DNA of 64,000 bases from an uncultured bacterium (lineage in GTDB: Bacteria > Patescibacteriota > Patescibacteriia > CAIQCM01), in the NCBI GenBank assembly GCA_963708045.1, contig OY970181.1, positions 67,740 to 131,739 of the forward strand, given 5' to 3'. The notes under the pieces are model-generated. The model saw nothing but the letters and a program-made list of their open reading frames with translations. It had not been told where the DNA came from and did not search any database. Both the position numbers and the translations under genes were made by a program. Each line of letters begins with the position of its first letter. The first letter of the stretch is position 1. This document shows positions 5,475 to 46,943 of this stretch, in pieces.

Positions 5475-7277
5475 TTATTCTTTATTGCTCCGCTTGCGCT
5501 CAAGGTGATCCAAAATTGCCTTACGAATGCGGATAGACTTTGGCGTGGCTTCAACGAGTTCGTCGTCGCCAATGTATTCCAAGGCATCTTCAAGTTCCAT
5601 TGTTCGCGGCGTGTCCAATTTTTCTTGTCCGCCGTCGCCCTTGGAGCGCATATTGGACAAACGTTTTTCTTTGCAAACGTTGACTTCAATATCTTCGGGT
5701 TTGGCGTTTTGTCCGACGACCATTCCCCCGTAAACCTCAACGCCCGGACCGATAAATAACTGTCCGCGTTCTTGCGCCGCCACCATTCCGTAAGTAATGG
5801 ACGTTCCGGCTTCGTAAGCAACGAGCGAGCCGTGTTCAATGCCAGAAAAGTCGCCGCGGTATGGTTCATAACCCAAGAAAAGCGAGTTAATGATGCCAAG
5901 TCCTTTGGTGTCAGTTAAAAATTCATTACGGTAACCAATAAGACCACGCGTCGGGATCGTAAATTCCAAAAAGGTCGTGCCGCGTTCAACCTTCATATCT
6001 TTCATTTCACCGCGGCGCTTGCCCATTTTTTCAATTACCGATCCGGAAAAAGCTTCGGGTGCTTCAATAAAGACTTGTTCCACTGGCTCCGAAGTGACAC
6101 CGTTAATTTCTTTTAAAATCACTTGCGGGCGCGAGACTTGCAATTCAAAACCTTCGCGACGCATTTTTTCAATCAAGATCGCGAGGTGTAATTCGCCGCG
6201 GCCAGACACAACAAAGTGGTCGGCGGAGTCGCCTGGCGCGACGCGCAAAGCAACGTCGGTCTGAAGTTCGCGTTCCAAACGATCTTTAATATTTCGGGAG
6301 GTCGTGTATTTTCCTTCTTTGCCCGAGAACGGCGAAGTGTTGATACCGAAAGTCATTTTAACCGTCGGCTCTTCAATCGCGATTGGCGGAAGTGGGGTTG
6401 GACTTTCAATGTCAGTGATTGATTCGCCAATGGAAATATCGGTAATGCCGGCAATGGCAATAATGTCCCCTGGGACGGCGGCTTCGGTTTCAAGGCGACC
6501 AAGCCCGTCATAAGTCATAACCGAAGTAAGACGAACTTTGGCCGAAGAACCATCGCGGCGCACGTGCAAAACTTCCTGACCCTTTTTAAGCGATCCGGCA
6601 TAAAGACGACCAACGGCAATTTTGCCAATGTAGTTGTCGTAAGCAAGCGACACGGCCAAGTACTGTAACTTAACATTTGGCAACACTGGCGCGGGAATTG
6701 ATTTTAAAATGGTTTCAAAAACCGGAACCACATCGGTCATTTTGGATAGATCCGGTTCTAAGCCGGCTTTGCCCTGTTTGGCCGAAGCATAAATAATCGG
6801 AAAATCGGTTTGTTCGTCGGAGGCACCCAAAGAAACAAAGAGGTCAAAAGTTTTATCCAAAACCCATTCAACGCGCGCGTCGGGTTTGTCAATTTTATTG
6901 ATAACAACAATAACTTTGTGACCAGCGGCAATCGCCTTTTTTAAAACGAATTTAGTCTGCGGCATTGGCCCTTCTTTGGCATCCACGAGCAAAAGCACGC
7001 CGTCAACCATTCGCATAATGCGCTCCACTTCGCCGCCAAAGTCGGCGTGACCAGGCGTGTCCACAATATTGATCTTAAAATCTTTATAATGAATAGCCGC
7101 GTTTTTTGAAAAAATCGTAATACCGCGTTCGCGCTCCAATTCGTTGGAGTCCATAATCAGGTCGGAAACGGCATCTTGTTTAATCTTAAAATCAGCTGAC
7201 TGCTTTAAAAGCGCGTCAACGAGCGTTGTCTTTCCATGGTCTACGTGAGCGATGATGGCGATGTTTCTTATTTCCAT
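5475..7277 (-). CDS. typA: Translational GTPase TypA/BipA
   Basis: MEIRNIAIIAHVDHGKTTLVDALL carries the G1-G4 GTPase motifs. The protein is 600 aa with EF-G-like domains. Confidence 0.92.
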   Translation of the reverse strand: MEIRNIAIIAHVDHGKTTLVDALLKQSADFKIKQDAVSDLIMDSNELERERGITIFSKNAAIHYKDFKINIVDTPGHADFGGEVERIMRMVDGVLLLVDAKEGPMPQTKFVLKKAIAAGHKVIVVINKIDKPDARVEWVLDKTFDLFVSLGASDEQTDFPIIYASAKQGKAGLEPDLSKMTDVVPVFETILKSIPAPVLPNVKLQYLAVSLAYDNYIGKIAVGRLYAGSLKKGQEVLHVRRDGSSAKVRLTSVMTYDGLGRLETEAAVPGDIIAIAGITDISIGESITDIESPTPLPPIAIEEPTVKMTFGINTSPFSGKEGKYTTSRNIKDRLERELQTDVALRVAPGDSADHFVVSGRGELHLAILIEKMRREGFELQVSRPQVILKEINGVTSEPVEQVFIEAPEAFSGSVIEKMGKRRGEMKDMKVERGTTFLEFTIPTRGLIGYRNEFLTDTKGLGIINSLFLGYEPYRGDFSGIEHGSLVAYEAGTSITYGMVAAQERGQLFIGPGVEVYGGMVVGQNAKPEDIEVNVCKEKRLSNMRSKGDGGQEKLDTPRTMELEDALEYIGDDELVEATPKSIRIRKAILDHLERKRSNKE

Positions 7278-8263: not shown

Positions 8264-8365
8264 AAAAAACTAATTAAGAATTTATTATACACCTAAATTA
8301 TGGCTCTTGAAAGAGAAACAGGTTTCTGCTACATTATGAAGGTCTTAACAAGGCCTTTTATTTTT

Positions 8366-8437
8366 GCGCCCTTAGTGAAATGGATATCACGGCAGGCTTC
8401 GAACCTGCTATTGGGGGTTCGAATCCCTCAGGGCGCA
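8366..8437 (+). tRNA. tRNA-Arg (anticodon TCG)
   Basis: Cloverleaf folded by hand: acceptor gcgccct/agggcgc, D-stem gtga/tcac, anticodon stem gcagg/cctgc with loop cttcgaa, and T-arm ggggg-ttcgaat-ccctc. Confidence 0.85.
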
Positions 8438-8765
8438 GAGGCTAGAGCCGTATCGCGGCTTTGACCTCTGCGCAGTTATGGTGGTCGGTATCGGCGCTAT
8501 CGCTTGATACCAACCCTAGCTCGGAGAAAGTGCAAAACGGTGCGCGATCAAATTGTTTCACAATTAACCTTTGTCGCCGTCTGTTATTAGCTCGAATACG
8601 ATTCGGCTAATAACAGCCGTCAACAAAGTAAAATCACTGCGGTGATTTTGATCGCACACCATTTTGTACTTTCAGTCACTCACAACGGGGTCCGTATCGT
8701 TGATACGATACCGGCCCTCGTTCGGAAAAAAAGTAAAAACACTTTTACTTTTTGTTCCTCACTTC

Positions 8766-8838
8766 GGGTCGGTAGCTCAGCCGGTAGAGCGGAGGACTCT
8801 TAATCCTTAGGTCGTGGGTTCAATCCCCACCCGACCCA
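8766..8838 (+). tRNA. tRNA-Lys (anticodon CTT)
   Basis: Acceptor gggtcgg/ccgaccc, D-stem gctc/gagc, anticodon stem gagga/tcctt with loop ctcttaa, and T-arm gtggg-ttcaatc-cccac. Confidence 0.9.
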
Positions 8839-8844
8839 TAAAAA

Positions 8845-8878
8845 ATATCCCACACTTTCGTGTGGGATATTTTTTATT
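8845..8878 (+). terminator. Rho-independent terminator after tRNA-Lys
   Basis: The hairpin atatcccacactttcgtgtgggatat is followed by tttttattt. Confidence 0.75.
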
Positions 8879-8904: not shown

Positions 8905-9185
8905 CTAAATCAGTAACGAACTCCCCCTACCCCCCCGATGGCCATCGGGGGGCTAAGACTGGTTACAGATTTCATGTCTACCAATGTGCAAAGAGAGGGC
9001 GAGGATAAAATTCTAAAATACAATCTTTTTTACAAAGACAGTGACAAAGGCACGAAAAATCTTAGGCCTCCCTTTGGTAAAAGGGAGGGTAGGGAGAGTT
9101 CTTTTTTATTACGTTAAAATTATTTACGGCGAAACGAACTCCCCCTACCCCCTCTTTTGCAAAGAGTGGGCTAAGACATTACCAG
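8905..9185. repeat. Two direct copies of the 'cgaaacgaactccccctaccccc...gggctaagac' repeat flanking a 'cctccctttggtaaaagggagggt' terminator-like hairpin
   Basis: Seen in sequence at 8910-8960 and 9125-9180. A related copy sits at 46795-46880 with the same hairpin family at 46740-46766. Confidence 0.6.
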
Positions 9186-22931: not shown

Positions 22932-24775
22932 ATGAAAGCCCAATTAAAAAACATCATAATTTTTATCGCTGCCCTCGTCATTCTCGGTGTAATTTTTTCC
23001 GCCATCAATATGAATGCGGAAAAACCAACCAAGGTTGACTTGGTAAAACTTTCCGAGCAAGTAAAGAGCGAGCAGATTTCAACCGTGGTCATTAAGGGCT
23101 CAAGCATTGAAGCCACGACGACCGACAACAAAAAAGAGGTCGCGACCAAAGAAGACAGCGAATCATTTACCGACCTCATGAAAAATCTGGGCGTCGGCGA
23201 CGATAAACTGCAAAAAATTTCTCTTACCGTTTCCAACCCGAGCGGTTTTGAAAACTGGCTATCGCTTCTCATACCAGTTTTCCTTCCAGTCATTCTTATT
23301 GGCGTGCTCCTCTTTTTTATGATGCGCCAAGCACAGGGACAAAATATGCGCGCGATGTCGTTTGGCCAGTCTGGTGCGCGCGAAGTTGGGAAAGACAATA
23401 AAAACAAAATCACTTTTGCCGACGTTGCCGGCGCCAAAGAAGCTAAAGAAGAACTTTCCGAAGTTGTTGAATTTTTACGCCAGCCAAAAAAATTCGTTGC
23501 TGTTGGCGCCAAAATTCCTAAAGGCGTTCTCTTAATGGGGCCGCCGGGCACGGGAAAAACAATGCTCGCTCGCGCCGTGGCCGGCGAAGCCGATGTCCCC
23601 TTTCTTCATATTTCTGGTTCCGAGTTTGTGGAAATGTTTGTCGGCGTTGGCGCATCGCGCGTCCGCGATCTTTTCGCTCGCGCCAAAAAGAGCGCGCCGT
23701 GCATTGTCTTTATAGATGAAATTGACGCCGTTGGTCGTCAACGTGGCACGGGTCTTGGCGGCTCGCACGACGAACGCGAACAGACGCTTAACCAAATTTT
23801 GGTTGAGATGGACGGCTTTGACCCCTCCTTGGGCGTGATCGTTATTGCCGCTACCAATCGCCCCGACGTTCTTGATCCCGCCCTCCTTCGCCCCGGCCGT
23901 TTTGACCGCCGCGTCGTTCTTGACCTCCCTGATGTAAACGAACGCGAGGCGATTCTTAAGGTTCACTTTAAAGGCAAGCCGATTTCCGAAAATGTTTCTG
24001 CGAGAAAAGTTGCCGAGCGCACGCCCGGATTCTCTGGCGCCGACCTTGCTAACGTGGTGAACGAAGCCGCAATTCTTACGGCGCGTCTTAACACCAAAAC
24101 CGTAACCGAGGATTCGCTACTCACATCCATTGAAAAAGTAATGCTCGGGCCGGAACGCAAGAGCCGCGTCATTACCGAGGAAGAAAAGAAAATTATCGCC
24201 TACCACGAAGCTGGACACGCGCTGGTTTTCCACGAACTCCCCGCCGCTGACCCAGTGCAAAAAATTTCCATTATCGCTCGCGGGCACGCCGGCGGCTACA
24301 CGATTAAAATGCCGACGGACGATCGCCGACTCCGCACGCGCGGCAATTTCCTCGCCGACTTAGCCGGATCACTTGGCGGCTTTGTGACGGAACGAGAAAT
24401 TTTTGGCAACGACAAGCTTACAACCGGCGCTTCGGCCGACCTTAAAAACGCGACGCGCACCGCCCGCCGAATGGTTACCGAATTTGGTATGTCCGACGTC
24501 CTTGGCCCCAGAACTTTTGGCGAGCACGAGGAAATGATTTTCCTCGGTCGCGAAATTTCGGAACAGCGCGACTACTCGGAAAAAATCGCCGAGCAAATTG
24601 ACAACGAAGTAAGCGCGCTTATCCGCGCCGCCGAGAAAAAAGCCGAATCAATCATCAAAACCAAACGCGTTGTTTTAGAAAAAACTGGTGGAAACATTGC
24701 TTAAGAAAGAAACAATAGAACGCGAAGACTTTGAAGCCATCGTCGGCCCCAAAGCCAAGGTATAAAACAAATTCA
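22932..24775 (+). CDS. ftsH: ATP-dependent zinc metalloprotease FtsH, with an apparent frameshift in the A6 run at about 24677-24682
   Basis: An N-terminal TM, AAA+ Walker [12 protein letters not shown], and the zinc protease motif HEAGHAL. The annotated ORF stops at 24704. The +1 frame continues [26 protein letters not shown], which matches a typical FtsH C-terminus. Confidence 0.88.
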
Positions 24776-24826: not shown

Positions 24827-24988
24827 CTAGAGGGTTTTATCGTATCGTTTTGATACGATTTTGGTTGAAGGTTTCGCCTCGACCAAAATGCGGTGGACGT
24901 CCGCTGTTCAACTACTGCCAAGCTAGTTATAACAAAAGCCCCATGTTCTCAACATGAGGCCTTCGATGAAACTTAACTAAAGAGCTGA

Positions 24989-40201: not shown

Positions 40202-40329
40202 AAATACCGCCCCGATGGCCATCGGGGCGGTATTTTTATAATCTTGGGAACCGATAGTTGACCAGAAGAGGGTTTTCTGTTATGTTGTTCTGAACAAAAT
40301 CGCCAGTAACGATTTTGGGGGAGGAACAA

Positions 40330-43451: not shown

Positions 43452-43699
43452 GGTGCCTCCTACTGTTTTACCCGTCTTAGTTCAGATCACCCGATCTGAA
43501 CTAAGGTAAGGGTTTCCGACCGCATCTAAACAATTTGTCGTAAAAATGTCAACCAATTGCACTTGATAAACCTTGCTATCAGATCCAGTATGTGCAAATT
43601 TTGCACATACTGAGTCGGTGCCCAGATCATTGTCTTTAAAGATATTGCAAATACGTTTAGTAATCAAAAAACACAAGCAGATAACACAAAAGAGACTAA

Positions 43700-43777
43700 T
43701 AACAAAAGACCACCCCGATTAAAGGGTGATCTTTTTTGCTGAGCCGACCTCGGTTCAAGTAGGCAAGCGAAGTTGAG
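43700..43777. repeat. Module M2b, adjacent to the tRNA-Glu 3' end
   Basis: taacaaaagaccaccccgattaaagggtgatcttttttgctgagccgacctcggttcaagtaggcaagcgaagttgag. Confidence 0.7.
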
Positions 43778-43813
43778 CTTCGCCGTCACTCTTAGAACCG
43801 AGCTGAGCTCGGG

Positions 43814-46680: not shown

Positions 46681-46943
46681 ATTTACATATCATAACACTT
46701 TGAACCAAATTTTCATTATTGATAAAAAAAATTGACTAGCCCCTCCCTTTGGTAAAAGGGAGGGTGCCCGAAAGGGCGGGAGGGTTCTGTTTTGTTACGT
46801 TAGGACGAAACAAACTCCCCGCCTCGTTGGCGGACAAGCCCCTACCCCCCGATGGACATCGGGGGGGGTAAGACAATTCCAAAATACTTAAACAAAAACA
46901 TCCCTCACTTGTATAAAGTGAGGGATGTTTTTTAAATTTTAAA

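Follow-up and report, generated by a model that had tools for sequence, protein, structure and literature searches.

Between the genes for tRNA-Arg and tRNA-Lys of an uncultured bacterium lies a 205-nt element (W) that, on comparative sequence evidence, is a conserved structured element of a new family. Our preferred reading, to which we give slightly less than an even chance, is that W is a non-coding element inserted site-specifically at the 5' end of tRNA-Lys, which would be transcribed together with the tRNAs and then eliminated by tRNA processing. The element was studied within a stretch of 64,000 nucleotides (here termed the window), the source of which is placed among the Patescibacteria (CPR) by TypA, encoded 1.1 kb away.

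Composition and folding of the spacer

The spacer between the two tRNA genes (8438-8765, 328 nt) has a minimum free energy (MFE) of -140.4 kcal/mol, compared with -81.5 +/- 5.4 for dinucleotide shuffles (z = -10.9; 0/100 shuffles equal), which bears out the claim of a first-pass annotation that it is highly structured; the reverse strand of the whole spacer folds as well as the tRNA strand (z = -11.4). The flanking tRNA-Arg and tRNA-Lys genes proposed in that annotation are both genuine according to ARAGORN and Rfam. The four hairpins that it listed are all present, the last one reading ccgtatcgttgatacgataccgg with one c that had been omitted, and the long-range pairing exists as well, with its arms at 8526-8552 and 8647-8673 (27 nt, 89% complementary) rather than at 8520-8542 and 8640-8662 as originally given. 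A related hairpin had been said to recur after ftsH (22932-24704, identified by Pfam); it is indeed found at 24839-24859, yet its similarity to the spacer is limited to GTATCGTT and GATACGAT and includes a 2-nt indel, and the link is weak because GTATCG occurs in the window no more often than chance predicts (22 occurrences, 22.1 expected). GTATCG was consequently discarded as a recurring protein-binding box, the ftsH-side palindrome having only 16 nt in common with the spacer hairpin. This palindrome, ATCGTATCGTTTTGATACGAT, is located just 3' of the ftsH terminator with TATCGTATC repeated 24 nt upstream, and could represent a candidate protein-binding site.

Only tRNAs reached the gathering score in the window when it was scanned with the covariance models of Rfam 15, and the spacer was without any family match on either strand even at E <= 10. 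The absence of RNase P RNA, tmRNA and SRP signatures, previously judged by eye, was upheld by Rfam, and ARAGORN detected no tmRNA; RNase P RNA, SRP RNA, 6S RNA and tmRNA are thus excluded by Rfam together with the absence of W from close relatives (see below). Group I and group II introns, self-cleaving ribozymes and HEARO were rejected as the spacer matches none of these families, and no Rfam hit at E <= 1 overlapped W, or the elements U, V and X described below, in six related loci. The spacer is therefore structured, as had been proposed, and outside Rfam, but it is a mosaic and not one 330-nt ncRNA gene, being wholly accounted for by a hairpin (hp1), W and a truncated second copy of W (W'; Table 1). 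The ncRNA reading also needs revision with regard to the insertion-like borders and distribution of W and to a mismatch pattern that fits the opposite strand.

Directly after hp1, the motif TGCGCAG can pair with the tRNA-Arg 3' end (GCGCA). Homologues of hp1 with compensated stems were identified in L083, L084 (two copies), L089 (two), L091 (two) and L092, and the non-Watson-Crick pairs of hp1 are, by hand count of the sequences, mostly G.U on the tRNA strand. In W, helix P1 and the three inner hairpins have the layout of a four-way junction. Global alignment of W' against both ends of W gave 59/79 identical positions (score 62.6, shuffles 20.2 +/- 5.0) and nhmmer matched 8688-8738 of W' to the 5' part of W; by these alignments W' is a second copy of W whose interior has been lost.

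Table 1 Features of the tRNA-Arg/tRNA-Lys region (window positions) and W homologues in related loci (locus positions)
Feature	Position	Strand	Remarks
Promoter-like site TTGAAA-17-TACATT with TG	8307-8335	+	5' of tRNA-Arg; sigma-70-like; consensus scan
Hairpin and U tract between promoter and tRNA-Arg	8338-8358	+	Counterparts L097 4064-4048, L098 3540-3558
tRNA-Arg(TCG)	8366-8437 (Rfam); 8365-8438 (ARAGORN)	+	Rfam and ARAGORN
hp1, trailer hairpin GAGGCTAGAGCCG/CGGCTTTGACCTC	8438-8475	+	13 bp, directly after tRNA-Arg discriminator base
W	8482-8686	not assigned (strand of fold)	205 nt: hairpin P0, 25-bp closing helix, three inner hairpins
P0 hairpin of W	8483-8492/8506-8515		First 9 nt match tRNA-Lys 5' end
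Joining strand of W, TAGCTCGGA	8516-8525		Conserved
P1 of W	8526-8550/8649-8673		25 bp, encloses Pa, Pb and Pc
Pa of W	8551-8556/8560-8565
Pb of W	8569-8591/8606-8628		Long; apical stem 8593-8597/8601-8605
Pc of W	8631-8637/8642-8648
Tail of W, ..CACTCACAAC	8674-8686		Ends CACAAC
W'	8687-8765	not assigned	Internally deleted second copy of W
P0' of W'	8688-8700/8705-8717		Joining strand TCGTTCGGA
Collapsed P1 stub of W'	8728-8738/8743-8753		AT-rich hairpin; inverted repeats
Tail of W', ..CCTCACTTC			Adjoins tRNA-Lys
tRNA-Lys(CTT)	8766-8838	+	ARAGORN and Rfam agree; first 9 nt = GGGTCGGTA
Bidirectional intrinsic terminator	8838-8877	+	18-bp stem between A tract and T tract; ends tRNA operon
W homologue, L100	3004-3207	-
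W homologue, L097	3715-3914	-
W homologue, L098	3656-3857	+	Identical in L099
W homologue, L089	246-455	-

The tRNA operon and its signals

Consensus scans of both strands detected no promoter- or terminator-like signal between the promoter-like site upstream of tRNA-Arg and the bidirectional terminator downstream of tRNA-Lys, so that tRNA-Arg, the spacer and tRNA-Lys are predicted, from these scans only, to form one transcription unit with a single promoter-like site and a single terminator. A counterpart of the promoter-like site (TTGAAA-17-TAGCAT) precedes tRNA-Arg in L097 and L100, and the site is also alignable with L084; the tRNA-Arg sequence itself is identical in L084, L097, L098 and L100. 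The hairpin between the promoter-like site and tRNA-Arg is terminator-like and conserved, and is located exactly at the expected transcript start. By inspection, an extended -10 box (GTGTATAAT, ~8283-8291, minus strand) is conserved in all related loci and is probably the promoter of the divergent operon encoding a 94-aa protein, a 194-aa protein and TypA. The neighbours of W in the window are, according to Pfam, two small unknown proteins, TypA, an IMP-cyclohydrolase-like protein and PilT. Elsewhere in the window, the minus-strand tRNA-Glu(TTC) gene is followed immediately by a 3' hairpin (CCGAGCTCAGCTCGG) and by a second hairpin before its terminator (43690-43811), and trailer hairpins may thus be general in this genome.

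Conservation and covariation of W

A TypA-anchored search with one genome per species returned relatives of <=70% identity, none of which carries the tRNA pair beside TypA, indicating that synteny is lost at that distance. Relatives were obtained from homologues of the 194-aa neighbour, from a metagenome scan for the tRNA-Arg 3' end plus RAGG, and from TypA homologues of 82-92% identity. tRNA-Arg(TCG) is followed by tRNA-Lys(CTT) in every recovered locus that reaches past tRNA-Arg (L084, L089, L090, L091, L094, L097, L098 and L100), with spacers of 58 nt (L090 and L094), 217 nt (L098), 239 nt (L091), 247 nt (L097), 269 nt (L100), 327-328 nt (window), 377 nt (L084) and 439 nt (L089). W was found in four other Patescibacteria metagenome contigs, always between both tRNAs and in constant orientation relative to them, and in all four (L089, L097, L098 and L100) it abuts tRNA-Lys directly (..C[A/G]CAAC followed at once by GGGTCGGTAGCTC).

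In the alignment of the four closest W sequences (window, L097, L098 and L100), the structure of 76 pairs is 88.7% paired and 18 pairs have changed on both sides. This number of two-sided changes was reached by 0/500 column shuffles, and sliding the 3' partners by 1-3 columns yielded at most 4 two-sided pairs and 30-42% pairing. The L089 copy, which is ~50% identical and whose stem sequences are unrelated, independently folds into the P0/P1/Pa/Pb/Pc layout. Hardly any variation was seen among the five W-bearing genomes in P0, CCTAGCTCGGAGAAA and the ..TCACAAC tail, and ~45 nt of unpaired W sequence together with the five-helix layout are kept between genomes whose spacers are otherwise unalignable. 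A profile built without L089 recovers the 5' part of the L089 copy (E = 9e-10) and nothing further in 1.48 Mb. No reading frame is common to the five copies, and a small protein encoded in W was rejected on this basis. The pairing pattern is thus kept in related genomes, and the earlier view that the spacer is too ordered for a simple tRNA operon spacer gains support, because W recurs at the same site with two-sided helix changes. A single template switch during replication could produce some of the compensatory-looking changes (PMC8794818).

Insertion signature and distribution

The first 9 nt of tRNA-Lys are duplicated at the start of both W and W', and next comes D-arm-like TAGCTCGG, which stands after the P0 loop and 3' strand and is close to tRNA-Lys positions 8-15; direct repeats of the tRNA-Lys 5' end thereby enclose each element. 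The window copy of W starts with GGGTCGGTA and the next repeat is GGGGTCCGTA of W', and in L089, L097, L098 and L100 GGGTCGGTA stands at the start of W and again at that of tRNA-Lys. In all five W-bearing genomes, direct repeats of a tRNA end thus lie on either side of the insert, and the tRNA gene is intact. An additional stray GGGTCGG is located 20 nt upstream of W in L100.

W is lacking in L094, L090, L084 and L091. L094 and L090 have the 58-nt spacer, and L091 lacks W yet has tRNA-Lys of the same type, and hp1, as in L089. In the TypA tree, L094 groups with the L097/L098 pair, i.e. within the W-bearing clade, and its TypA is 95% identical to that of both. The divergence of W does not follow that of TypA either, as L097 and L098 share 98.3% identity in TypA and 73.7% in W, compared with 92.2% and 86.9%, respectively, for the window and L100. 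W is thus polymorphic in its presence and diverges incongruently with TypA; vertical descent with one loss in L094 would account for much of its distribution, and such a loss together with fast evolution is an alternative account. An essential housekeeping RNA was rejected since W is missing from L094 and L090, both closely related. The sequence that separates tRNA-Arg from W also varies, consisting of hp1 in the window, of another hairpin in L097 and L100, of 15 nt in L098 and of a complete additional unit in L089, and the entire tRNA unit is inverted in L098 and L094. The tRNA-Lys acceptor stem is GGGTCGG/CCGACCC in all W-bearing genomes and GGGCCGC/GCGGCCC in L094, L090 and L084, which lack W; L091 is the exception, with the GGGTCGG stem but no W.

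Across the window, which covers 64 kb of the 1.19-Mb source genome, and 100 loci (1.48 Mb in total), nhmmer located W only between tRNA-Arg and tRNA-Lys, so that a dispersed repeat (MITE or REP/BIME) was rejected, no copies being present at unrelated sites in the sequence searched. By inspection, W has no terminal inverted repeats, its ends (TC.. and ..CACAAC) being non-complementary in 5/5 copies, and the examined loci contain neither a second W locus nor an empty and a filled site with identical flanks. Its mobility is for these reasons inferred rather than shown. Pfam identified no recombinase, transposase or homing nuclease gene in or beside W in the window, and the called genes of L084, L094, L097, L098 and L100 include no recombinase or nuclease; an enzyme mobilising W may act in trans from elsewhere in the genome. 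A retron was dismissed, as no reverse transcriptase domain occurs among the window neighbours or in the gene tables of the related loci, and so was an IS200/IS605-type or bridge-RNA element, no TnpA/TnpB or recombinase gene being adjacent. A hammerhead-like GATGAG in relatives was rejected, as it simply complements the T arm of tRNA-Arg and lacks conservation. The spacer had no match in phage and plasmid collections (blastn), and viral contigs scanned with W and tRNA-Arg-end motifs gave 0 hits; two viral-contig hits of a motif of element U lie inside protein-coding sequence and were set aside as chance matches.

On the reading of W as a site-specific insert, the element would enter at the 5' end of the tRNA-Lys gene and leave that gene intact, would have done so at least twice in the window (W and W'), and would spread or be exchanged among related Patescibacteria. 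It would be transcribed within the tRNA precursor, because it lies between the sole promoter and tRNA-Lys with no terminator between, and would be released by an RNase P cut at tRNA-Lys +1 and possibly also by one at the tRNA-like P0 helix. Its fold could serve the element's own mobility, hold the precursor in an inert state, or function as a separate RNA.

Strand of the fold and alternative readings

The 76 helical columns of the four-sequence alignment comprise 262 Watson-Crick cells, 22 A.C cells (15 columns) and 5 G.U cells (5 columns) as read on the tRNA strand, and 12 other mismatches. Because A.C on the tRNA strand corresponds to G.U on its complement, the fold is better suited to the opposite strand (15 versus 5 G.U columns, binomial p ~0.04). 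The opposite-strand fold has an MFE lower by 12 to 24 kcal/mol in 5/5 homologues and a better z-score in 4/5, and the RNAalifold consensus reaches -98.1 kcal/mol (SCI 0.97) on the opposite strand versus -68.7 (SCI 0.84) on the tRNA strand. Furthermore, the C5.A mismatch of P0 is invariant in 5/5 genomes and reads U.G on the opposite strand, and the tRNA strand of W contains more C than G. The mismatch asymmetry is also seen in L098, whose unit is inverted with respect to the neighbouring sequence, and hp1 has the reverse bias; a regional mutation bias is therefore an unlikely cause. Such a pattern is unexpected for a fold selected in a tRNA-strand transcript.

This pattern bears directly on the possibility that W is a host ncRNA, i.e. 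a stable RNA cut from the tRNA operon by tRNA-processing enzymes that acts in trans or binds protein. Such an RNA would be in keeping with the conserved fold and its 18 doubly changed pairs, with the conserved single-stranded motifs, with the co-transcription of W suggested by its position, and with the Pc loop, which on the tRNA strand forms a c(UNCG)g tetraloop in 4/4 close copies (UGCG or UCCG). Additionally, the 3' end of W always meets a tRNA-like 5' end, and hence a site for RNase P, which also holds in the window despite the intervening W'. We nevertheless consider a host ncRNA unlikely, given that W is absent from L094 and L090, which are close relatives, and from L084 and L091, that its divergence does not track TypA, that it has no Rfam relative, and that both the ratio of A.C to G.U cells (22 to 5) and the excess of C over G on the tRNA strand are atypical of an RNA fold under selection.

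The same asymmetries, including their persistence in the inverted L098 unit and their reversal in hp1, favour a fold selected on the strand opposite the tRNAs, either in an antisense RNA, which might pair through its 3' end (..GAUACCGACCC) with the initial 9 nt of tRNA-Lys, or in a single-stranded DNA hairpin serving replication or movement of the element. This reading appears quite improbable to us, as consensus scans of that strand in the window, L097, L100 and L098 found no promoter-like site directed into W, and W touches tRNA-Lys in four genomes, leaving no room for such a promoter; the bidirectional terminator 3' of tRNA-Lys is predicted to block read-in, the opposite-strand Pc hairpin of L097, with its U-rich tract, scores as a terminator inside W, and the UNCG loops sit on the tRNA strand. 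An independent antisense sRNA gene was rejected since no promoter and terminator of its own were found on the opposite strand.

Finally, it is very unlikely that the spacer is functionless palindromic filler produced by tRNA-end duplication and template switching and tolerated since tRNA processing removes it: its near-perfect stems, the equal folding of its two strands, a content that varies from 58 to 439 nt among relatives with differing modules, the duplication and subsequent decay seen in W', and the ability of template switching to make and "compensate" hairpins in a single event (PMC8794818) would all suit filler, but the five-helix layout and unpaired sequence are retained between genomes, the shuffle and slid-partner controls fall far under the observed covariation, and the strand asymmetry of the mismatches would be unexpected for neutral palindromes.

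Other structured inserts at tRNA genes

Further short, structured elements, purine-rich on the tRNA strand and designated X, U and V, follow tRNA-Arg or tRNA-Lys in L084 (4560-5480), L089, L091 (950-1190), L097 (3500-3640) and L098 (3930-4080). An inverted T-arm copy stands before each of them, and after each come the tRNA 3' end in direct repeat and its hairpin or terminator; up to three units of this type stand in tandem after tRNA-Lys in L084. As the elements end in a T-arm-like hairpin plus the tRNA 3'-end copy, a tRNA-like acceptor/T helix could form there.

Duplication of tRNA ends was surveyed for the 56 tRNAs in all fetched loci. A copy of the last 12 nt was present within 700 nt downstream for 8/56 tRNAs and upstream for 0/56, and a copy of the first 12 nt was present upstream for 6/56. 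Inserts flanked by duplicated tRNA ends were also identified outside the focal clade, in other Patescibacteria (L024, L027, L029 and L009). Those in L024 (8876-9290), L029 (9268-9420 and 14843-15290) and L027 (~6389-6570, minus strand) are short and structured, with duplicated tRNA 3' or 5' ends. In L009 (~6850-7255), a gene for an 81-aa GIY-YIG nuclease (Pfam E = 2e-20) lies between a copy of the 5' half of tRNA-Glu(CTC), with a hairpin inserted in its D loop, and the intact tRNA, an arrangement that looks like a nuclease cassette inserted into a tRNA gene; no homology was found between this insert and W.

A second repeat family (AACGAACTCCCCCTACCCCC plus a hairpin) is represented by two copies 3' of the tRNA-Lys terminator, with the inverted partner GGGAGGGTAGGGAGAGTTC; its sites are 8915-9177, 46742-46867 and 40205-40232 in the window, ~4440-4530 in L084 and 11481-11573 in L097.

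It is conceivable, if decidedly doubtful, that W, the unrelated elements X, U and V, and the similar inserts at other tRNAs of more distant Patescibacteria make up a new class of miniature, protein-less, fold-dependent elements homing to the ends of tRNA genes in these bacteria. Selection would then act on the fold of the strand opposite the tRNA, so that the life cycle of the elements would include an intermediate of single-stranded DNA or antisense RNA.

Comparison with known systems

In Escherichia coli, the 3'ETS-leuZ and the internal spacer of metZWV give rise to small RNAs from tRNA-operon spacers or trailers, which are weakly structured base-pairing sponges of ~50 nt. Like these, W is non-coding and lies between or after tRNAs, and its ends would be set by tRNA-processing enzymes; unlike them, it is 205 nt long, has a four-way junction and a tRNA-end copy at its start, is absent from close relatives, and has mismatches that favour the other strand. 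The known integrative elements at tRNA genes extend over kilobases, insert into the 3' half of the tRNA gene and depend on a tyrosine or serine integrase that they carry or borrow. W resembles these elements and their gene-less, cis-mobilisable derivatives in that a direct repeat of a tRNA end flanks the insert and the tRNA gene is intact, and arrays formed by repeated insertion at one site, as in integrative elements, have parallels in W with W' and in the three units after tRNA-Lys of L084. It differs in its size, in its position at the 5' end of the tRNA, in its 9-nt repeat, and in having no recombinase nearby.

A selfish cassette among tRNA genes is also known from phage T4, where SegB is encoded by a free-standing GIY-YIG homing endonuclease gene in a tRNA cluster (PMC2330249). 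The GIY-YIG gene beside the tRNA-Glu copy in L009 resembles the SegB setting, whereas W encodes no protein and has no linked nuclease gene. With REP/BIME and MITEs, W shares the character of a short, non-coding, strongly palindromic intergenic mosaic; those elements, however, exist as many near-identical dispersed copies, whereas W occupies one locus in 1.48 Mb, has no terminal inverted repeats, and diverges between genomes while its fold is kept. No account of such elements in Patescibacteria was found in the literature searched.

Patescibacteria have very small genomes with few described ncRNAs or mobile elements. In W, they present a 205-nt element within a tRNA operon that appears shaped by compensatory evolution and lies outside the catalogued RNA families, at a locus where tRNA ends have repeatedly been duplicated around short structured inserts. 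The conflict between the strand predicted to be transcribed and the strand with the selected-looking fold is itself unusual. As an RNA product, W would represent a new RNA family that relies on the tRNA-processing machinery for its maturation; as a selfish insert, it would point to an unrecognised way of colonising tRNA genes in these organisms without destroying them.
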